Of a DNA stretch of 64,000 nucleotides, positions 577-59,462 are shown in pieces (within the stretch, counting starts at the first letter, position 1; every line of letters starts with the position of its first letter). The translations under genes and the position numbers were made by a program. The notes beneath the pieces are model-generated. The model saw only the letters and a list, made by a program, of their open reading frames with translations. It did not search any database and was not told where the DNA came from. The DNA comes from Candidatus Woesearchaeota archaeon (GTDB lineage: Archaea > Nanobdellota > Nanobdellia > SCGC-AAA011-G17 > JACPIM01). The stretch lies in NCBI GenBank assembly GCA_964513145.1, contig CAZELK010000003.1:32001-96000 (forward strand), written 5' to 3'.

Positions 577-681
577 TCAAACACCTTTTAATATAATTAG
601 TATGAGCAAAATTGTAAAAACTATTATCATAAATCCAATAAAATACTGCCTCCAATTATCTGGCAATTCTGATAATTTCAT
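577..681 (-). CDS. 34-aa single-TM micro-protein (not in ORF track)
   Basis: Hand translation MKLSELPDNWRQYFIGFMIIVFTILLILIILKGV*; stop is 1 nt from the next ATG. Confidence 0.5.
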   Translation of the reverse strand: MKLSELPDNWRQYFIGFMIIVFTILLILIILKGV

Positions 682-826
682 GATAATGTAACTCATTATA
701 TGTATTTAATATTTTATTTTAACTTGAAAGTAGCCCAGGAATCTTCCGGGTTTTTTGAAAGATTTGCAAAAAGATGCCCATAATATGAAGAAAAATATAT
801 AAATAAAGCTTAAAGAGTATTAAATA

Positions 827-2293
827 ATGAAACCTGAAGATTTGCTAGTAAAAGAGAGAATAGAAAAATTAGAGAAATTAAAAAAATTAGGTGCAGATCC
901 CTATCCTTCTAAATTTGACAAAAAGAATGACATTATTGATATTGTAAACAAATACTCAAAATTAAAAAATGAAGAACATTCCAAAGATGCGATTAAAACT
1001 GCTGGCAAAGTAATGTCTATCAGAGAAATGGGTAAGGCATCTTTTTTTGATATTAAAGATGAAAAATCAAAAATTCAATGCTTTATTAAAGAAGACGAAG
1101 TCAAGAAAAAATATGAAATTTACAAACTTCTTGATATTGGCGATATTGTCGGGATTGAAGGCAGTATTTTTAGAACCAAGAGGGGAGAATTATCAATATT
1201 AGTAAAAAATATTGTTATTTTATCAAAGTCTTTAAAACCCCTGCCTGACAAATGGCATGGATTAAAAGATGTTGAAGAGAAATTCAGGAAAAGATATTTA
1301 GATCTTCTTATGGATCCAGAATTAAAAGAATTATTTATAAAAAAATCCAAATTCTGGCAGACAATAAGAAACTTTTTATTAAATAAAGGATTTTTAGAAG
1401 TTGAAACCCCTGTTTTAGAAACCTCGACTGGGGGTGCGGCTGCCATGCCGTTTAAGACACATCATAATTCTTTGGATATTGATGTTTACTTAAGAATTTC
1501 AATGGGCGAATTATGGCAAAAAAAATTATTAGTTGGTGGTTTTGAAAAAACTTTTGAGATAGGAAGACAATTCAGAAATGAAGGTGTAGATACAGAACAT
1601 TTACAAGATTATACGCAAATGGAATTTTACTGGGCTTATGCTAATTACAATGATGGAATGGAATTAGTTCAAGAGATGTACAGATTAGTTGCCAAAGAAA
1701 TTTTAGGAACTCTGAAATTTAAGACACATGGCTTTGATATTGATTTAGGAAAAAAATGGGAATTATATGACTATGAAACTTTAATTAAAGATAAAACAGG
1801 AATAAAAATATTTGAAGCTTCTAAAAAAGAAATTCAAAAAAAATTGGATCAATTAAAAATGGAATATGAAAAAAATGCTGCTAAATGGAGGTTGGTTGAT
1901 GTTTTATGGAAATACTGCAGAAAATCATTATCTGGTCCGGGGTTTTTAATAAACCAGCCAGTTGATGTAAGCCCATTAGCGAAAAGAAGCGACAAAGATA
2001 ATAGAAAAGTTGAGCAATTTCAAGTTATACTTGCTGGAACTGAATTAGGAAATGGATATAGTGAATTAAATGATCCGCTTGATCAGGAAAAAAGGTTTAT
2101 AGAACAAAGAAAATTGAAAGAAGCTGGAGATAAGGAAGCTCATGAACATGATGAAAGTTTTGTCGAGGCTTTAAAATATGGGATGCCACCTGCTTGCGGA
2201 TTTGGAGTTTCTGAAAGATTATTTGCTTTTCTAGTTGACAAACCAATCAGGGAATGCGTTATTTTTCCTTTAATGAAACCTGAGAAGAACTAA
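827..2293 (+). CDS. lysS: Lysyl-tRNA synthetase, class II
   Basis: OB-fold anticodon domain, FLEVETP motif 1, FEIGRQFRNEG motif 2, YGMPPACGFG motif 3. Confidence 0.97.
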   Translation: MKPEDLLVKERIEKLEKLKKLGADPYPSKFDKKNDIIDIVNKYSKLKNEEHSKDAIKTAGKVMSIREMGKASFFDIKDEKSKIQCFIKEDEVKKKYEIYKLLDIGDIVGIEGSIFRTKRGELSILVKNIVILSKSLKPLPDKWHGLKDVEEKFRKRYLDLLMDPELKELFIKKSKFWQTIRNFLLNKGFLEVETPVLETSTGGAAAMPFKTHHNSLDIDVYLRISMGELWQKKLLVGGFEKTFEIGRQFRNEGVDTEHLQDYTQMEFYWAYANYNDGMELVQEMYRLVAKEILGTLKFKTHGFDIDLGKKWELYDYETLIKDKTGIKIFEASKKEIQKKLDQLKMEYEKNAAKWRLVDVLWKYCRKSLSGPGFLINQPVDVSPLAKRSDKDNRKVEQFQVILAGTELGNGYSELNDPLDQEKRFIEQRKLKEAGDKEAHEHDESFVEALKYGMPPACGFGVSERLFAFLVDKPIRECVIFPLMKPEKN

Positions 2294-2735
2294 ACTGTTT
2301 TTTGAGCAATTCTTCTTTTTTTTCTTGAAGGATTTCTACCAATTCTCTTGTTTTTCCTTTTTCTAATGGCAATGTTAATGGTTTTTTTCTTTTTGAAAGA
2401 TCGTCAGAATCTTCAAGAAATTTGACAAATAGCATATCAGTTATTGCATTATCTAAATTTATTCTTTCATTAAATTCTGGCTGAATTCTTAATTTCCTAT
2501 ATACGTCTAAATAATTTTCCTGATTAAAGTAAAAAATGAAATGCTCACTAGAGACAAAACTTTCTAAAAATAAATTATACTCAAGTGGTTTTCTGCAATT
2601 TTCAATTTTTAGGATATTTTTCTGATGCTGAAATTCTGCATAAATATAATCTTTAAGATAAATGCAGCTACCTAATGTTGCTAAAGCAGCAAGTGTTAAT
2701 CCAGCTGCCAAAAAATCTGACAAGCTTCTTGACAT
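2259..2735 (-). CDS. Hypothetical protein with N-terminal membrane anchor
   Basis: 158-aa ORF with hydrophobic N-terminus. Confidence 0.6.
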   Translation of the reverse strand: MSRSLSDFLAAGLTLAALATLGSCIYLKDYIYAEFQHQKNILKIENCRKPLEYNLFLESFVSSEHFIFYFNQENYLDVYRKLRIQPEFNERINLDNAITDMLFVKFLEDSDDLSKRKKPLTLPLEKGKTRELVEILQEKKEELLKKQFSSSQVSLKEK

Positions 2736-2810
2736 AAACCCTAATTAATTTGCAAGTTTATATTTCTGCCTAAAAACCTTTAAATTCGGGCTTTTTGAGC
2801 CATTTTAAGC

Positions 2811-2824
2811 AAAAGCTTTATATA
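2811..2824 (+). promoter_or_regulatory. BRE/TATA box upstream of the histone gene
   Basis: AAAAGC-TTTATATA about 80 nt upstream of the ATG; GGAGG SD at about 2890. Confidence 0.55.
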
Positions 2825-2901
2825 TTAGTACTTCATTATTCTAAATAAAATAAGGTTTTAAGCCTTATAATGATTAAATACAAAAATATGGAGGGGTTTT
2901 T

Positions 2902-3072
2902 ATGGCAGAACTTTTGGTTGTAAGATCTAAAATAAAGGACTTTGCTAAGAACATGAATGTAGCAGGTGATTTCGCAGAGGCTTTAAGTGCTAAGGTTGAA
3001 GTGTTAGTCAAGGAAGCTTGCAAGAGAGCATCTGAAAACGGAAGAAAAACAGTTCAATCCAGAGATCTTTAA
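2902..3072 (+). CDS. Short archaeal histone-fold protein (DUF1931-like, 56 aa; not in ORF track)
   Basis: MAELLVVRSKIKDFAKNMNVAGDFAEALSAKVEVLVKEACKRASENGRKTVQSRDL*; RKTVxxxD histone L2 motif; strong SD. Confidence 0.9.
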   Translation: MAELLVVRSKIKDFAKNMNVAGDFAEALSAKVEVLVKEACKRASENGRKTVQSRDL

Positions 3073-3242
3073 TTTTATTTTTATTTTTTATTAATTTTTA
3101 CAAAATTAATTCTAAAAAATATTTTTTGTAACTTATTTGTTTCTAAATAATTTAATTTTTATAAACTTTATTTTTTCCAGATAAAGATATAAATTTAAAC
3201 ACCAAAAATATTTAGATAAGATAAAAAAGGAGCTGATGTAAA

Positions 3243-3635
3243 ATTTCGAAATTGAAAGGAAATCGAACTGAAAGGGAATTATTTCATATGTTCTGGGACT
3301 CTAATATGTGGGTTTGTATCAGAACTGCTGGTTCTGGAAGCACTACTGTTCCTGCTCCAGATTTATTAGTTGGAAATCAACAAAGAAAATTAGCTATTGA
3401 ATGCAAGTCTGGAAAAGATAAAAGATATTTAACAAAAAAAGAAGTTGAGGAGTTGATTTTCTTCGCTGAAAAATTTGGGGCTGAGGCCTGGATTGGTGTT
3501 AGATTTAATAATGTTGACTGGTTATTTTTAAGACCCGAAGAATTGGGTGTAAGCAAAGGAGATAATTTTTTTGTTTCTGTTGAACTGGCAAAAGAGAGAG
3601 GAATAAGTTTTGAGAATTTAATAAATTTGAATTAA
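3243..3635 (+). CDS. hjc: Archaeal Holliday junction resolvase (start at ATT 3243 or TTG 3252)
   Basis: KGNRTERELF, PDLLVG and IECKS PD-(D/E)xK motifs. Confidence 0.92.
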   Translation: MSKLKGNRTERELFHMFWDSNMWVCIRTAGSGSTTVPAPDLLVGNQQRKLAIECKSGKDKRYLTKKEVEELIFFAEKFGAEAWIGVRFNNVDWLFLRPEELGVSKGDNFFVSVELAKERGISFENLINLN

Positions 3636-19788: not shown

Positions 19789-19890
19789 CAGCCGTATCCC
19801 AACAGTCCAGCTAGATAGTTTATTAAAAGGAAAAACTCTTGAAGAATGGAAGAAATAAATTTATAATTACTCTTTTCTTTGTTTATACTT

Positions 19891-20856
19891 ATGATTTGTT
19901 TAGGCATTGAGGGAACTAGTCATACATTTGGTTGTGGAATTGTGACTAGCAAGAAAAAGATTCTTTCTGATGTTAGAGATATGCATACGACTGAAGAAGG
20001 AGGAATTATACCAGTTATTGCAGCAGAACACCATAAAAAAATAGCTAAACAAGTAATTGAAAAAGCAATTTTGGAAGCGAGATATCCAAAAATAGATTTA
20101 ATTAGTTTTTCAAGAAGTCCGGGATTACCGCCGAGCCTGCATGAAACTAGAAAAATTGCATTGGAATTAGCAAAAGAAATGAATTTGCCAGTTATTGGCG
20201 TTAACCATGTTGCTTCGCATTTAAGTTCTGCTCATTTTCATACTAATGTTAAAGACCCAGTATATCTTTTTGTTTCTGGAGCAAATACACAATTATTAAT
20301 TTTAGAAAATAAGAAATTTCATATTATTGGAGAGTCTTTAGATATTGCAATAGGAAATGCTTTAGACAAATTTGCAAGAGAAATTGGCTTGGGTTTTCCA
20401 GGCGGACCAAAAATTGAGGAACTAGCAAAAAATGGTTCTTATGTTGGCTTGCCTTATTTAGTGAAAGGAATGGATTTGAGTTTTTCCGGCATAGTAACTT
20501 ATCTTACAAATTTGTATAAGAAAAATTTTAAAAAAGAAGATTTATGTTTTTCTTTTCAAGAAACTTGTTTTGCTATGCTAACAGAAGTAGCTGAAAGGGC
20601 TATGGCAAACTGCGATAAAAAAGAATTAGTTTTAATTGGGGGAGTAGCTGCAAATAAAAGATTAAAGGAAATGTTAAATATCATGTGCAATGAAAGAAAG
20701 TCGAAATTTTATTCTGTTCCATTGAAATATAGCGGGGATCATGGCGCAATGATTGCTTATCAAGGTATTTTGGAATATAATTCAACTAAGAAAGTAAATA
20801 CAGAAATAAATCCTTATGAAAGAGTTGATCAAATAACTGCTAACTGGAAATATTAG
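19891..20856 (+). CDS. kae1: tRNA N6-threonylcarbamoyltransferase Kae1/TsaD
   Basis: GIEGTSH, NHVASH, VSGANT and GGVAAN motifs. Confidence 0.95.
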   Translation: MICLGIEGTSHTFGCGIVTSKKKILSDVRDMHTTEEGGIIPVIAAEHHKKIAKQVIEKAILEARYPKIDLISFSRSPGLPPSLHETRKIALELAKEMNLPVIGVNHVASHLSSAHFHTNVKDPVYLFVSGANTQLLILENKKFHIIGESLDIAIGNALDKFAREIGLGFPGGPKIEELAKNGSYVGLPYLVKGMDLSFSGIVTYLTNLYKKNFKKEDLCFSFQETCFAMLTEVAERAMANCDKKELVLIGGVAANKRLKEMLNIMCNERKSKFYSVPLKYSGDHGAMIAYQGILEYNSTKKVNTEINPYERVDQITANWKY

Positions 20857-20887
20857 AACCTTTTTAATTAAAAAGCTTTACCAAAAA
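20857..20887 (+). repeat. REP-like hairpin repeat copy
   Basis: AACCTTTTT-aatt-AAAAAGCTTTACCAAAAA between convergent genes. Confidence 0.55.
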
Positions 20888-20893
20888 TTTACC

Positions 20894-21532
20894 CTAGCTT
20901 GCTTCTGCGAATTTTATTCTCAAATTTTTTAATTCCTTTTTAATTTTATTATGAATGGTTGCTGCTGAGATGTCTAATTCTTTAGCAACTTTCTTCATAC
21001 TTTTTTCTTCTTCAAAATACTTTTTAAATATATCTTTAGTTTGCGGTTCCTTGATGCTGTAATTTATACATTTTAATAATTCTTCTTTTTCTAGAATATC
21101 TACTTGCTTTTCTCTTTCTGATTCTACTATCTCTTCCAATTGAGACCAATTATTATTTGTAACATATCTATGTCTTTTTTCTTTTCTTAGCGAGTCAAGT
21201 ATTTTACTTTTTGCACATGAATAAACGTATGTTGAAAATCGGCTTTGATAATTATAATTTTCAATATTATTTATGGCTTTTAATAATCCCAGATTTCCTA
21301 TGCTTATCAAGTCTATAAAATTAATTTTACAACCTAGAAATTTATTCGCAACAGCACTAACAACCCAAAGATTATGATTTAGCAGTTTTTCTTTTATTTT
21401 TTCATCTTTTTTAGCTTTTTCTACCAATTCTTTTTCTTCTTCGTCATTTAGCCTGTGATATTTACTTATTTCATTAAAATAAATCTCAATTACATCAACA
21501 CCATTTTTTCTTTTATATTCCAATCTTTTCAT
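20894..21532 (-). CDS. Sigma-70-family-like protein (regions 1.2, 2 and 4)
   Basis: IYFNEISKYHRLNDEEEKEL (1.2), DLISIGNLGLLKA and RFSTYV (2), SMKKVAKELDISAATIHN HTH (4.2). Confidence 0.82.
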   Translation of the reverse strand: MKRLEYKRKNGVDVIEIYFNEISKYHRLNDEEEKELVEKAKKDEKIKEKLLNHNLWVVSAVANKFLGCKINFIDLISIGNLGLLKAINNIENYNYQSRFSTYVYSCAKSKILDSLRKEKRHRYVTNNNWSQLEEIVESEREKQVDILEKEELLKCINYSIKEPQTKDIFKKYFEEEKSMKKVAKELDISAATIHNKIKKELKNLRIKFAEAS

Positions 21533-21620
21533 TATTAGAAATTTAATTTTTGTATTTTAATATATTTCTATCTAGAAAGAATTTTTTATTAATAATTTTA
21601 GAATTAAAAAAATAAAAAAA

Positions 21621-21643
21621 CATAGGTAATTGGCTTGTATTTT
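21621..21643 (-). other. 3' arm of 23S flanking stem (pairs with 25047-25069)
   Basis: 23-nt inverted repeat with one mismatch. Confidence 0.85.
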
Positions 21644-21932
21644 ATTTTTGGGCTATTAGTAACTGCAAGCTGAATACGTCGCCGAAGCTTCGTACTTACA
21701 CTTCAGTCCTATCAAACTCATGTTCTTTGAGCGCCCTATATCTCTTTTCAAGTATAGCTTCCTCCTTAGATGCTTTCAGGAGTTATCTATTAGAGCGTAG
21801 CTGCTCGGCCTGCCTTGTCAGACAACCGATACACCAGAGGCTCCGAATCATTGTTCCTCTCGTACTAAATGATCCTTACCTTCAGATATTAAGCACTTCC
21901 AGTAGATATAATCCAAACTGTCTCACAACGTT

Positions 21933-22016
21933 ATGTTAAACGGGAGGAATTGAACCTCGCTTCGGCAAATACATAGAGATGTTTTAATTTGCTTATGTAT
22001 TTGCTTACAACCGTTG
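21933..22016 (-). other. 23S intron, 84 nt (about E. coli 2588/2589)
   Basis: Relaxed BHB: GUUA/UAAC central helix, bulges AG|C and AU|A, inner helix AACGG/CCGUU. Confidence 0.88.
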
Positions 22017-22070
22017 CTTAACCCAGCTCACGAACCATTTTAATGGGTGAACACCCCCACCCTTGGCTGC

Positions 22071-22256
22071 CTACAGTTCGAAGGACAATTCGTGAAAATA
22101 GTTTTCCTTAAAGTCAAAATATTAGTGATTAATTTAATATAGTTCTAAATAGTTCTCAAATTAACATACTAATTTTTAGACTTCTAAGTAATAGATATCG
22201 GAAATAAAAGACATTTTGACTTGAAAAACTATTGTTCGTATGATTGTCCTTCGACA
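22071..22256 (-). other. 23S intron, 186 nt (H91 loop, about 2534/2535)
   Basis: GCAG/CUGU helix, bulges AA|U and AG|G, long inner hairpin; splicing gives a GUGCAGAAGC loop. Confidence 0.85.
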
Positions 22257-22269
22257 TTCTGCACAGCCA

Positions 22270-22301
22270 CTATATTGATACAAGAATTAACTTTATATCA
22301 T
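22270..22301 (-). other. 23S intron, 32 nt (about 2521/2522)
   Basis: Strict BHB: AUAU/AUAU helix, bulges CC|A and AG|U, inner UGAUAUAA/UUGUAUCA. Confidence 0.9.
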
Positions 22302-22373
22302 GGATATGGTGAGCCGACGTCGAAGTAGCAAACAGCGCCATCGATATGAGCTCTTAGGCGCTACGACTCAGTT

Positions 22374-22410
22374 CTAGGGATCTAAGAGAAAATTTTTGAT
22401 CTCTAAGATT
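22374..22410 (-). other. 23S intron, 37 nt (about U2449/A2450)
   Basis: GGGG/CCCU helix, bulges AU|A and AG|A, 10-bp inner helix with one mismatch. Confidence 0.88.
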
Positions 22411-22914
22411 ATCCCCGAGATAGCTTTTCTGTCATACCTAGCCCCTATTAATAAGGACATAGGGGTTCGCTAGACCAGACTTTCGTCTCTGGATTTTTTA
22501 ATAGTCAAAATCCAGTCAGGCCAACTTTTGCTCTTGCACTCTTCAGAAGATTTCCAAACTTCTTGAGTTGACCTTAGGGCCCTGTTGATATCTTTTCAAC
22601 AGGGTGCCGCCCCAGCCAAACTGTCCAACTGCTGCTGTCCCAACTTTCGTTGGTAAGTAACATAAATTCTACAGAGTGGTATTTCAATTTTGTCTATCCT
22701 TAACCTAGCAGCTAAGGCATAGCGACTACCACCTATACTACACAGTAGAACATATATCACAACAACAGTCTACAGTAAAGTTCTACGGGGTCTTTTCTTC
22801 CCGCTGGAAGTCTCTGGCCTGCACACCAGAAGGGTATTTTCAGTGGATACTAACTAGGGACAGTGCGGATCTCGTTACGCCATTCATGCGCGTCGTCATT
22901 CAAACGACAAGGTA

Positions 22915-23053
22915 CAACGATATCATTAATCTCATTTCTCAGATTCAACTTTTCAGTTCAAAATGTGAAAGATATTTTTTGTTTAACAAACCCAAGGCAA
23001 TTCTCTTAGATGAATGGCTTTTTCATCAAAATCTATAGCGAGATTAATGATAA
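22915..23053 (-). other. 23S intron, 139 nt (about A1938/U1939)
   Basis: GCGA/UCGU helix, bulges AA|U and UG|U, 13-bp perfect inner helix. Confidence 0.9.
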
Positions 23054-23079
23054 TTTCGCTACCTTAAGAGAATTATAGT

Positions 23080-23111
23080 CTAGAATTGTTAAAGATTTTT
23101 CTTACAACAAA
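23080..23111 (-). other. 23S intron, 32 nt (H69 loop, about A1912/A1913)
   Basis: GGAA/UUCU helix, bulges UA|U and AG|A; splicing restores UAACUAUA. Confidence 0.9.
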
Positions 23112-23903
23112 TATTCCCGCCGTTTACAAGTCCTTAGCCTCCTTGAAAAGAGGTTTTAGATACTTGCACTGGGCAGACGTCACGTCTCATACACATCATT
23201 GCTGACTTGCGAGACGTTACGTTTTTGTTAAACAGTCGGACCCGCCTAGTCACTGCGCCCTGTAATTGCAGTTAGAAACTACAACCGCAGGGATTCCTTC
23301 TACCAAAGGTACGGAACTAAATTGCCGATTTCCCTTAGCTAGTTTACACCATCATACCTTAGGCTTCTCACCTAGAGTACCTGTGTTGGTTCTGGGTATA
23401 ATTATTCAAGATCCTTTTTAATTTCATTTTCACGGACTCCAGGCATCAACCAAATGGACCATAAGGTCCACTATTCTTAAAATTAATCAAGTTCTCACCA
23501 TTACGGTACTTCCTTGATTTGTTTTAATTAACATCCAAGACAATAGATGTTGGCTTAGCCCAAAATGTCTGAAACTAAACTTGTGTTACCACGCGTACTT
23601 GAATAGTAAAGGAATATTAACCTTTTTCCCATTCCCTAAGACCTATTAGGCCTTTGGTTAGGATTAACTTACTCTTAGCTGATTTGCATTGCTAAGAAAC
23701 CCTTACTCTTACGGTATCAGGGAGTCTTACCCTGTATTGCTCCTACTACTACCAGGATTCTCATTTTTATTAGGTCCACTATTTCTTTCGAAAAAGCTTC
23801 TACCCTAACAAAGCGCCTACCTACCACATAAGTTCTTTACTTAGTCTATAGTATCGGTAACTGATTTAGCCCCGTCCATCTTCAGGGCATATAACCTTGA
23901 CAG

Positions 23904-23946
<43 letters not shown>

Positions 23947-25046
23947 TACCTCCCTGCTGTCTCTGGTTATACACGCCTTTTACCCTTTAACACTTAATCA
24001 GTATTTAGGGACCTTAACTATAGTCTGGGTTGTTCCCCTCTCGCGATATAAGCTTAACCCACATCGCTTTTTCCTAAGGTCTCAGATGACAAAATATTCG
24101 GAGTTGGACGAAGAGGGGAGGAATTTCTTCCCCTTACCCCTAAATCCGTAGCTCTACAATTTTATCTATCTCACTTAAGACTAGACTGAGGCCTATTTCG
24201 GTAGGAACCAGCTATAACCAGTCTCGATTGGCTTTTCACCCCTAATCTAAGGTTATACAAACAGATTTACACTAGAACTGCTTCAGGCCTCCACAAGGTT
24301 TTACCCCTGCTTCACCTTACCCTAGAATAGATCGACTGGATTCGGGTAGCATCCAAGTGACTATAGGCACTTTCATACCTAACCCCTCCTTGAAAAGTGT
24401 GGGTTTTTGGTTTCCCTTCAAGTTCAAACTGAAAAGTTTTTACTTTCGCCACTTAAATGCACTCCCTGGCTCGTTATTCGAAACGCACGATACAACTCCG
24501 AAGAGCAGTATCATTCTGTATTCATTAGGTTTCAGGATCTTTTCACTCCATGTTAAAGGTTCTTTTCAACTTTCCTTCGCAGTACTCTTTGCTATCGGTC
24601 TCAAGTTATATTTAGAGTTGGAAGTTAATAGCTCCCACATTCACACCCCATATCCGAGGAGTGCTACTCTGGATACCTCGCAAGTCTATTAATCTGCTCT
24701 ACAGGACTATCACCTTCTATGATGTCTTTTTCCAAAGAACTTTGAGCAGAATTAATTAAGATCAAAAGCAAGGTCCAAACACTACATTTCTATTTTATTT
24801 CTAAAATAGATTCAGTTTGCTCTATGTCGTTTTTTCTCGCTGATACTCACGACATCTATTTGATTTCTTTTCCTCCAGGTACTAAGACGTTTCAATTCCC
24901 CAGGTTCCCAATCTTTTCAGATTTAATGAGAAGTCTCATTCAGAAATCTCCAGTTCACAAGTTGCATGCACTTCGCTGGAGCTTATCACAGCTTGCCATG
25001 TCCTTCTTCGGAACTTGAGCCAAGTCATCCACCTAATGAAGTAGGA

Positions 25047-25069
25047 AAAATACAGGCCAATTACCTATG
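25047..25069 (-). other. 5' arm of 23S flanking stem
   Basis: Inverted repeat of 21621-21643. Confidence 0.85.
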
Positions 25070-25414: not shown

Positions 25415-26958
<1,544 letters not shown>

Positions 26959-27246: not shown

Positions 27247-28446
27247 TCAAAACTCAATTAATTTTCTTTGGCTTTTTTTATTTTTTAATAAAATACTTTT
27301 ATTTGTTATTTTATTTATACTAAATTTTAATCTTTCCTGCATATTATTTAATGCTTCTTTTAAATTATTAAATTTTAAGGGTGGTTTTTTGAATGAGTTT
27401 CTAGTTACTTCTCTTAAAATGCCGACGCCTAACTGAGCCCAATAATCACCTATTTCTCTTATTATTAAAATCCCAGCCTGCCTTTTTATTTGATTTAAAT
27501 ATTCGCAAGCAGCTAATCTATTTGCATAATATGCTCCTGTAACATCAAAGGCATATTTCTTTTTGCCTTCGTAACCTTCATAATCCTGCCAAAAATAATT
27601 ATCATCTAAACCAGGCAGCTTTATTTCTATTACTTCAAAAGACCATTCATTTGGGAATAAAATAATTTCATAATGATTTTCTAGATAAGTATCATGAAAA
27701 ACTAGAATCTCACTTAACCATTGATAATCTTTGATTTTTTCTGTTAAATCTTTTGATATTAAAGTATCAACTGCTGTGATGCTCCATTTTGTCGGAACTA
27801 ATTTTCTTTGCTCCACGATTCCAAGCAAGCCAGATGATAATATTTTTACTAAGTAACTTATATTGAAACCTTTTTTGTAAAGCTCTAAAATACTTTCTTT
27901 TGATTTTACGTCTTTACTGAAAACAGCTTTTTCGACTGGCTTTTCTATTTTAATATTTTCAGTTATTACTGCTTTTCTTAATGGTGCGGGATTAGACATT
28001 GGGACTGATTTAGAATCAAAAATAATGTTGAAATCTGGTTTTCTGTCCAAATAAAACTCAACATCAACTGATTTTTTACTCATTGAAACTTCCTGCATAA
28101 CTTCCAATAATTTATTTTTACTTTTAATATTGCTTTTAAAGCGAGAATATATCATTGAACTTCTTCTAGACAGAATATCCTGGATTTCTAATTTTTCCCT
28201 AAACCAGTCTTCAGGGTTGCTTAAATTACCTGAATCTTCTTTATATTCTATTGGGGAAATTATTCCAGTAAATATATTTGGATAATTATATTCGCCTACA
28301 AAAATATCTGGCGGTGTGTTTCCTAAAAATTCCAGATTAAATGTTTTTGGAGAGAACTTTTTAGTTATTTCTTTAAATGGACAAAAACCATCTTTTAAAT
28401 AAGGATGCTTTCCATTACAAGACTGACATAAATAACCCATTTTCAT
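27247..28446 (-). CDS. nreA: Archaeal DNA repair protein NreA
   Basis: N-terminal CxxC, PPDIFVGEYNYP, GAYYANRLA, C-terminal PIP box QRKLIEF. Confidence 0.9.
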   Translation of the reverse strand: MKMGYLCQSCNGKHPYLKDGFCPFKEITKKFSPKTFNLEFLGNTPPDIFVGEYNYPNIFTGIISPIEYKEDSGNLSNPEDWFREKLEIQDILSRRSSMIYSRFKSNIKSKNKLLEVMQEVSMSKKSVDVEFYLDRKPDFNIIFDSKSVPMSNPAPLRKAVITENIKIEKPVEKAVFSKDVKSKESILELYKKGFNISYLVKILSSGLLGIVEQRKLVPTKWSITAVDTLISKDLTEKIKDYQWLSEILVFHDTYLENHYEIILFPNEWSFEVIEIKLPGLDDNYFWQDYEGYEGKKKYAFDVTGAYYANRLAACEYLNQIKRQAGILIIREIGDYWAQLGVGILREVTRNSFKKPPLKFNNLKEALNNMQERLKFSINKITNKSILLKNKKSQRKLIEF

Positions 28447-28513
28447 GTATTAGTTAAATAAATATATAATAATTTTGCAATAAGCTTATAATTTAGTTTA
28501 ATTTCATTCTTTT

Positions 28514-28735
28514 ATGTTAGACAGATTAAAAGAAACTTGTAATTCTTTGAAAACAGCTTATGATTTGGGTTGTGAAAGACAGAAATCTCTTTTAGAAATC
28601 ACTATTATAAATGGAGATAATAAACTTTCTTCTGAAGAAGCTTGCCGTAGAATTAAAGAATTAGACCTTATTTATATTAACCTTAATATTTTAGAAAAAA
28701 TAGCTTTTGATTTTGGGTGCATGGAAGAATATTAA
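28514..28735 (+). CDS. Hypothetical protein
   Basis: 73-aa ORF. Confidence 0.45.
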   Translation: MLDRLKETCNSLKTAYDLGCERQKSLLEITIINGDNKLSSEEACRRIKELDLIYINLNILEKIAFDFGCMEEY

Positions 28736-28889
28736 TTATTATTTTTTATCTGTAATATATTTCTTTTTTAGCAAGAGCATTTTGTCTTAAAAAAGGCTGA
28801 GCAGTTCATTGTAATTGAAATAAATTTAACTTATGAAAATTAAGATTTTTGGAGAGAGAAACTTTTGAATTTTGATGAGGATATGAGTT

Positions 28890-29153
28890 TTAAATAGCGC
28901 CAGCCATAATTCTATAATTGTGTTTTTTTATTAAGTCTTCCAAGGCTATTCTTTTCTCTTCGCCTAATTCTCTTTTGGCTTCTTCATCAAAATTTATAGT
29001 AATAATTTTATCCTGACCATTTGTTTCCATAACTTTTAGAAATTTTCCAATTAAGCCATCGTAATCAGTTTTACATGATTTTACTTTAGCTGTACCAGAA
29101 TTATAAACATTATACCTTCCATGCTCGTATTTTATTTTGAAGTCAAAATCCAT
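28890..29153 (-). CDS. Hypothetical protein
   Basis: 87-aa ORF. Confidence 0.55.
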   Translation of the reverse strand: MDFDFKIKYEHGRYNVYNSGTAKVKSCKTDYDGLIGKFLKVMETNGQDKIITINFDEEAKRELGEEKRIALEDLIKKHNYRIMAGAI

Positions 29154-31975: not shown

Positions 31976-32281
31976 ATGGTAGAAGCACAAACTTTGGAAA
32001 TAAAAACTCTGGATGAATATAAGTTAGGCAGTTTTGTTAAAAGAGTTACTGGACGCAGTATTTTTCCTTATTTTAATCAAATTGCTGAAATAGCTGAATT
32101 TGATCAAGGTTTACTAGAAGCTCTTATTGGGGCTGTTTCTATTGTAAATCGCGCTGGAAAACTTGGAAAAGAAGTAAACTATGAGACTTTTGATTATTTA
32201 TCAGACTCATTGCCTAATGAGAAATTAAATTCTTTTTTAAAAGCAATTTATAATAAAGCAAACGGAGAAAAATCTTCATAA
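31976..32281 (+). CDS. Hypothetical protein
   Basis: Strong AGGAGG SD; 101 aa. Confidence 0.65.
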   Translation: MVEAQTLEIKTLDEYKLGSFVKRVTGRSIFPYFNQIAEIAEFDQGLLEALIGAVSIVNRAGKLGKEVNYETFDYLSDSLPNEKLNSFLKAIYNKANGEKSS

Positions 32282-59117: not shown

Positions 59118-59462
59118 TTAATCTTCTTTTATACTTTTTTTGAAACTGACTCTGTTTGTCTTTCCCTCTGTTTTAAATTTATGAGTTATTTCTGTTTCTA
59201 TTTTCTCGAATGTTTTATTTAATGTTTTTACCAAGTCCCAATCACTATATTCAACAGAAGCCAACAAACTAGGGGCTTCTATTCTGCCGTGAACAGAATA
59301 TTTACATCTTTTCCCAGAAGCTTTCATTTTTTTGACATGAAATATTACTAACGGGTCTTGTAAATTTCGACTTGTTTTATTATAAAATCTTTCGCTATAA
59401 GTTGTTAATTTACTTAACTCATCCTCATCTAAAGAATTAACACCTATAAAATTTAGGCTCAT
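59118..59462 (-). CDS. HPF/RaiA-like ribosome hibernation domain protein
   Basis: FHVKK...KYSVHGRI...DWDL...FEKIETEI pattern. Confidence 0.6.
   Translation of the reverse strand: MSLNFIGVNSLDEDELSKLTTYSERFYNKTSRNLQDPLVIFHVKKMKASGKRCKYSVHGRIEAPSLLASVEYSDWDLVKTLNKTFEKIETEITHKFKTEGKTNRVSFKKSIKED

Follow-up and report, generated by a model that had tools for sequence, protein, structure and literature searches.

A short, fast-evolving sigma-70-family gene with a fixed address between the 23S rRNA and kae1 genes of Woesearchaeota

Sigma factors define transcription initiation in bacteria; archaea initiate with TBP, TFB and TFE. Genes of the sigma-70 family (fam00359) have been described in DPANN archaea, where they are 'particularly prevalent in Woesearchaeota'; mis-binning was ruled out, anti-sigma factors were not found, and the mechanism was left open (Castelle et al. 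2021, Front Microbiol, PMC8204110). Our own counts are in line with that account. Of 201 genomes from the phylum with a completeness of 90% or more, 81 (about 40%) encode the Sigma70_r2 domain, as do 24 of 41 relatives belonging to the same order; all four archaeal control genomes lack it. The occurrence of sigma-70 genes in some 40% of the good genomes of a phylum with an archaeal polymerase alone is a published puzzle, and the novelty implied in an earlier note on this DNA was overstated, since the Woesearchaeota genes have been in print since 2021 (PMC8204110). A search of the literature did not reveal a functional study of archaeal sigma homologues.

The gene described here lies in a stretch of 64,000 nucleotides, referred to as the window, which corresponds to positions 32,001 to 96,000 of contig CAZELK010000003.1 from a Candidatus Woesearchaeota archaeon (G000:C3:32001-96000; the genome is G000 below). 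Its product, the short sigma, matches the Pfam models for regions 1.2, 2 and 4, in each case above the curated gathering cut-off (Table 1), and a scan of the 212-residue protein gave no match to Sigma70_r3 (PF04539). The NCBIfam model of the sigma-70 superfamily, TIGR02937, matches residues 48–206 with an E value of 4e-26 and 91.5 bits against a cut-off of 42.9, and the closest solved relatives in a phmmer search of the PDB sequences are SigA chains (E 2e-12). The AlphaFold2 model, computed from an 84-sequence alignment, has a mean pLDDT of 88.7; its two helical domains are connected through a linker of low confidence, in which residues 130–141 have pLDDT values below 50. In a Foldseek comparison of this model with the PDB, the top 50 matches were all sigma factors, each with a probability of 1.00. 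By its regions 2 and 4, and by its sigma2 and sigma4 folds, the protein is a member of the sigma-70 family.

Table 1. Features of the short-sigma locus. Positions refer to the window, except for the paralogue, which lies outside it.
Feature	Position	Strand	Evidence
293-aa sigma paralogue, 3 kb before the window	G000:C3 about 28018-28899 (L001 1018..1899)	-	
kae1/tsaD, convergent on the short sigma	19879..20856	+	Pfam PF00814, E 1.3e-71; synteny conserved
Short sigma-70-family CDS (sigma1.2-sigma2-linker-sigma4)	20894..21532	-	212 aa, ATG start; ORF, Pfam, NCBIfam, PDB, AlphaFold2, Foldseek
Short sigma, region 4 helix-turn-helix, residues 163-205	20918..21046	-	Pfam PF04545 (Sigma70_r4), 25.7 bits vs 24.1
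Short sigma, linker in place of region 3 and the 3.2 finger, residues ~121-145	21098..21172	-	Alignment, AlphaFold2
Short sigma, regions 2.1-2.4, residues 52-120	21173..21379	-	Pfam PF04542 (Sigma70_r2), 43.2 bits vs cut-off 24
Short sigma, region 1.2, residues 13-43	21404..21496	-	Pfam PF00140 (Sigma70_r1_2), 25.3 bits vs cut-off 22
Candidate archaeal promoter: TATA-like heptamer ATATATT at -33 from the ATG	21559..21565	-	
T7AT7 tract directly after the 23S flank helix, terminator-like (archaeal)	21606..21620	-	
Processing stem of the 23S rRNA (pairing of its two flanks/ends), 3' strand	21621..21643	-	RNA duplex, -41.6 kcal/mol
Archaeal 23S rRNA gene	21636..25056	-	Rfam RF02540, 2246.6 bits
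Archaeal 16S rRNA gene	25415..26958	-	Rfam RF01959, 1354.2 bits

Alignment with Escherichia coli sigma70 (locus L163) places the deletion of region 3 at about residues 455–525 of the latter and sets Y104-S105-C106 of the short sigma opposite T432-W433-W434. The earlier note, which had seen a sigma-70-like gene with regions 1.2, 2.1–2.4 and a 4.2 helix-turn-helix, with region 3 missing and YSC in place of the tryptophan dyad, was thus right in its description throughout: Pfam, TIGR02937, phmmer, AlphaFold2, Foldseek and the E. coli alignment all agree with it. It had also held that the want of a sigma fold in profile or structure searches would speak against the assignment; the fold was found in both.

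The short sigma fits the published definition of fam00359, namely a sigma-70 protein on a DPANN contig with archaeal markers. It belongs to the same Pfam family and the same lineage, it is encoded among archaeal genes, TBP, TFB and TFE are present alongside it, and in neither case is an anti-sigma factor reported. The subfamily to which it belongs is nevertheless not described in PMC8204110. Its members have 200–232 residues, lack region 3 and are fixed between the 23S rRNA gene and kae1, and they differ further from the published account in their very fast evolution and in the loss of canonical DNA-reading residues. What is new is therefore the locus-fixed short subfamily, its hypervariability, the pattern of residue loss and a probable promoter of its own, whereas the phenomenon itself is published; as a discovery it is incremental. 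Its value lies in offering a tractable case, for the protein is small, with two domains and a confident fold, and the gene has a fixed address and probably its own promoter.

Among the bacterial groups, the best end-to-end NCBIfam alignments are with the group 3 sporulation factors SigK and SigE (residues 16–209 aligned with 20–229 of 235), which are likewise short proteins with a region 1.2. The scores, however, are 60 and 59 bits, far under the respective cut-offs of 252 and 339; the short sigma has no pro-sequence, and its region 3 is absent rather than merely short. The score is indeed far below the cut-off of every NCBIfam subfamily model (SigK, SigE, RpoD, RpoS and others). Group 4 (ECF) factors share with the short sigma the sigma2-linker-sigma4 arrangement without region 3 and without the tryptophan dyad, but they lack the region 1.2 that it possesses; the match to the ECF model PF07638 reaches 17.8 bits, below the cut-off of 21.1, and there is no adjacent anti-sigma gene. 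Assignment to each of the bacterial groups was accordingly rejected: to groups 1 and 2 (primary-like) on the missing PF04539 match and the changed tryptophan dyad and sigma70-type −35 residues, to group 3 (SigK, SigE, SigF and WhiG types) on a best score of 60 against 252 bits and the lack of region 3, and to group 4 on the PF00140 match (25.3 against 22 bits) and a PF07638 score below cut-off.

The residues that have been kept and lost follow a pattern, which is given here in E. coli sigma70 numbering. In the alignments the short sigma is best conserved in its 2.2 helix, IDLISIGNLGLLKAI. Most of the ten short sigmas retain D403, G408, N409 and L412 of this helix, although E407 is an isoleucine in the window's protein. 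F427, T429 and an aromatic residue (Y/F/W) at 430 are also kept in most of the ten, and the FSTY motif is conserved. W433 and W434 are lost in all ten; Y425, Q437 and R441 are changed in nearly all, with serine in place of Y425 in nine. The set of residues that canonically melts and reads the −10 element (Y425, Y430, W433, W434, Q437, T440, R441) is not preserved in the window's short sigma, which carries the substitutions W433→S, W434→C, Y425→S, Q437→S, T440→L and R441→D and keeps only F427, T429 and Y430. Nor are the canonical −35-reading residues kept in its region 4, and the recognition positions R584, E585, R586 and R588 in 4.2 vary from one short sigma to another. Many short sigmas end, past region 4.2, in a conserved tail of the form [FY]-x-E-A-[AS/N], with instances FAEAS, YVEAA, FMEAA and YAEAN; this tail (20894..20911 in the window) has no counterpart in E. 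coli sigma70.

A second sigma gene on the same contig, encoding a 293-residue paralogue of the same family (Table 1), offers an instructive comparison. It too evolves fast within the genus, at 40–47% identity, yet it has region 3 together with W433/W434, Q437 and R441, none of which is present in the short sigma, and it is identical to E. coli sigma70 at R584, E585, R586, R588 and Q589, of which the short sigma has none. The remaining positions of the pattern given above likewise carry the sigma70 residue in the paralogue. The two proteins do not group in the tree. Such sigma70-like residues in the paralogue are striking in a cell without a bacterial RNA polymerase.

An exhaustive HMMER search of 1.84 billion representative sequences returned 14,272 matches, four of them at E ≤1e-30, and a word-indexed protein search with the short sigma gave only seven. 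Full-length relatives of about 200–232 residues were collected (P0009, P0010, P0011, P0008, P0013, P0014, P0015, P0158 and P0098). A phylogeny of sigma-like proteins, a check called for when the gene was first noticed, has now been built: the ten short forms, the query included, make up a single clade with an SH-aLRT value of 97, apart from the long sigmas of the genus. Many forks in this tree are open and the branches are long, and the sister group of the short clade is left unplaced. When the family's GTDB representatives were compared, no genus other than that of the window yielded the short form. Neither the tree nor a pattern scan of GTDB identified a donor lineage; what the scan yielded was for the most part primary sigmas from AT-rich bacteria, Mycoplasma and Fusobacteria among them, and we read this as an effect of composition. 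Another genus of the family carries a different, 206-residue ECF-like sigma without region 1.2 (L160, G008:C15, 1465..2085); it lies directly behind what appears to be a beta-CASP/metallo-beta-lactamase-like gene, with no rRNA gene nearby.

At least seven further assemblies, independent of this one and drawn from different samples, show the same arrangement of 23S rRNA, short sigma and convergent kae1. It is found in G001 (Ca. Woesearchaeota archaeon isolate RIFCSPHIGHO2_02_FULL_29_19) and G002, in L034 (NCBI GCA_053532875.1), in the Logan assemblies L032 and L035, and in the ENA contigs L116 and L117, both with a LAGLIDADG ORF ahead of the sigma gene. At NCBI the orthologous protein of G002 goes under the name 'sigma-70 family RNA polymerase sigma factor [Nanoarchaeota archaeon]'.

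Taking the evidence as a whole, we lean with moderate confidence towards an intact archaeal gene for a two-domain sigma-70-family protein, belonging to a fast-evolving and locus-fixed subfamily, transcribed from its own promoter and acting as a cytoplasmic regulator. A cytoplasmic location is suggested because the protein has no signal sequence. It would be a regulator and not a classical promoter-melting sigma: the W433/W434 wedge, Y425, Q437, R441 and the sigma70-type −35 residues have been lost, while the protein retains its fold, its 2.2 helix and the helix-turn-helix of region 4. The short sigma probably binds DNA through sigma4. The known role of the 2.2 helix is to bind the β′ clamp helices of core RNA polymerase, and the retention of D403, G408, N409 and L412 suggests a helical docking partner; the helix may dock on a coiled coil, the obvious candidate being that of the clamp in the cell's sole RNA polymerase. 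Docked in this way, the short sigma would modulate initiation alongside TBP, TFB and TFE. That the regulator touches the archaeal polymerase is a tentative proposal, which we would not put at even chances.

The polymerase itself is archaeal. G000 has a single locus for the largest subunit, in the archaeal organisation Rpo2N, Rpo2C, Rpo1N, Rpo1C, and one TFB, one TBP and a TFE; a second, bacterial polymerase was looked for and rejected, the only Rpb1_1 locus being the archaeal one. The clamp coiled coil of Rpo1N aligns without gaps to residues 255–310 of E. coli β′. The β′ residues R275, E295 and A302, which we take to be critical for the docking of sigma70, correspond to I244, L264 and H271 in Rpo1N, so that the bacterial type of docking surface is not preserved; read from the alignment, the coiled coil leans slightly against bacterial-type docking of the short sigma. 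There is no sign of co-adaptation between the clamp and the sigma in the 28 relatives compared, with and without sigma genes, and since the coiled coil is invariant across all of them the comparison carries no co-adaptation signal. The notion that the sigma stands in for a missing TFE was rejected, TFE (PF02002) being present in 40 of the 41 relatives, G000 included. As a separate observation, both Rpo2N (991 residues) and Rpo1N (1363 residues) of G000 contain inteins of about 490 residues (Pfam Intein_splicing); the genes lie at 641..3616 and 5422..9513 of L031 (G000:C8:24000-36000). Rpo1N is free of the intein, at about 875 residues, in the congeners G001 and G002, and the long form occurs also in G008.

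These polymerase data, together with the loss of the −10 opening and reading residues W433/W434, Y425, Q437 and R441, bear on another possibility, in which the sigma fold has been exapted as a stand-alone DNA-binding factor that uses only its sigma4 helix-turn-helix and makes no contact with RNA polymerase. The docking positions of the clamp that are not bacterial-like, and an archaeal initiation set that is complete in TBP, TFB and TFE, are what such a protein would lead one to expect. Two features are not: the part of the protein best conserved is the 2.2 helix (D403, G408, N409, L412), known for core binding, and the recognition positions of the helix-turn-helix are variable, the opposite of the expectation for a pure DNA binder. 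We regard this possibility as rather doubtful, but it stands close behind a regulator that touches the polymerase, and the decaying-remnant and effector hypotheses considered below are minor beside both. A regulator in contact with the archaeal clamp is what we continue to prefer. Carried to its full extent, this would have the 2.2 helix dock on the archaeal clamp, the short sigma and the 293-residue paralogue serve together as accessory initiation or specificity factors, and the hypervariability arise through allele replacement under diversifying selection; the whole of this scheme is a good deal less probable, and we consider it speculative. If true, docking of a sigma on an archaeal polymerase would constitute a hybrid bacterial/archaeal transcription system, and the diversifying selection might come from, for example, viruses or partner organisms. 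With the 2.2 helix retained and the melting and reading residues lost, the question of docking on the archaeal clamp is testable with recombinant proteins.

The short sigma begins 103 nt past the end of the 23S gene on the same strand, a spacing that follows from the Rfam limits of the latter and bears out the figure of about 100 nt given in the earlier note. Oligo-T tracts act as terminators in archaeal transcription. A T7AT7 tract directly follows the helix of the 23S flanks, which ends at 21621, and T-runs occur at this position in most of the orthologous 23S–sigma spacers. Further downstream there is a TATA-like heptamer, and each of the eight orthologous loci has a single such heptamer at −30 to −42. 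When 705 long ORFs of the whole genome are taken together, the TATA-like heptamers ahead of them show a sharp peak at −28/−29 from the ATG, with 35–38 occurrences against a background of 5.5, which points to mostly leaderless mRNAs in G000; GGWG near the ATG shows only a weak rise genome-wide. TATA-like words are common at 28% G+C, and the designation of the heptamer as a candidate promoter is moderately supported.

The position of the gene had also prompted the suggestion that it is co-transcribed with the 23S rRNA. As a member of the rRNA operon it would have its level coupled to ribosome synthesis, and the shared strand, the 103-nt distance and the linkage to the 23S 3′ end, strict in all assemblies that reach that far, are in keeping with this. 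Co-transcription is nevertheless unlikely because the T7AT7 tract comes directly behind the 23S flank helix, with T-runs in most orthologous spacers, and the TATA-like box at −33 lies near the genomic peak, at a distance typical of promoters in this genome. From these signals in the DNA, the short sigma is probably a transcription unit of its own, with its own archaeal TATA promoter placed after an oligo-T stop of the rRNA transcript.

The short sigma evolves much faster than its surroundings. At six syntenic loci Kae1 is 77–90% identical and the short sigma only 29–61%; the N-terminus of Rpo1N is 87% identical within the genus. Its dN is five to eight times that of kae1, and the least saturated pair gives a dN/dS of 0.27, the other pairs 0.4–0.7, values that are indicative only, as dS is 0.7–1.5 and close to saturation. 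Across the window's locus at 19879..21650 and the syntenic loci L023, L024, L032, L034 and L116, divergence of the sigma is out of step with that of its flanks: L116 has the closest Kae1 (87%) yet a sigma of only 31% identity, and L032 has the most distant Kae1 (77%) yet comes closest both in the sigma (49%) and in the 23S end (95%). Alleles may have been replaced by recombination between the 23S and kae1 arms.

Very fast evolution and the loss of canonical functional residues might also mark the short sigma as a decaying, functionless remnant of an old bacterial import, kept by chance. The G002 orthologue could be taken in the same sense. Its ATG, at 540 of L024 (G002:C2, 540..615), and region 1.2 are in different frames, the break falling at a run of six A residues, and in three independent assemblies the G002-type protein is called as 200 residues with a TTG start and without region 1.2; either a real frameshift in this lineage or an unusual mode of initiation would account for this. 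The start region of G002 aside, no internal stops occur in the listed orthologues. The frame has stayed open, at a similar length, in at least nine diverged lineages while synonymous sites have come near to saturation; dN/dS is below 1, at 0.27 in the best pair; and the motifs are conserved in a protein for which the model is confidently folded. We therefore consider a remnant distinctly improbable, although fast evolution and variable recognition residues in the helix-turn-helix fit relaxed constraint equally as well as a regulator with shifting specificity.

Fast evolution is typical, too, of conflict genes, and a sigma fold with its 2.2 helix kept in a cell that lacks a bacterial polymerase raises the thought of an effector that, once delivered, would capture the core RNA polymerase of a bacterial host or partner. 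Such a function had been entertained from the outset and finds no support: the N-terminus has no hydrophobic signal sequence, the neighbours are housekeeping genes with no secretion system among them, the residues that would read a bacterial promoter have been lost, and Woesearchaeota are not known to have a bacterial host. Such an effector is very unlikely.

The argument that the archaeal flanks speak against contamination has held. Besides the rRNA genes, the window contains genes that are typically archaeal, among them those for Nre, a primase with both a PriS and a PriL domain, a HerA-like ATPase and Kae1; outside the rRNAs the region keeps an even G+C of about 28%; and the genome (977,603 bp in 18 contigs) reaches 98.8% completeness, with contamination at 0.27%. 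An assembly chimera or bacterial contamination is practically inconceivable, being refuted by the recurrence of the 23S–sigma–kae1 junctions in at least seven other assemblies and opposed by the uniform G+C and the low contamination, with nothing found in its favour in the junctions, base composition or genome quality. We conclude that the short sigma gene is intact, belongs to the chromosome of a Woesearchaeota archaeon (DPANN; GTDB Nanoarchaeota) and has been inherited vertically, and its identity as a sigma-70-family gene resident in an archaeon can be regarded as all but certain.

Elsewhere in the window, the proposal that a 114-residue ORF at 59118..59462 (−) encodes an HPF/RaiA-like hibernation factor was unsupported, as no Pfam model matched at E ≤0.001. 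In the window, in L023 (4439..8469) and in L034 (93..5895), the neighbouring 23S genes are themselves long, ranging from 3421 to 5803 nt against a model of 2987 nt. The extra length of the gene in the window includes no long ORF; LAGLIDADG ORFs lie inside the others, one in G001 (L023, 7218..7763) and three in L034.
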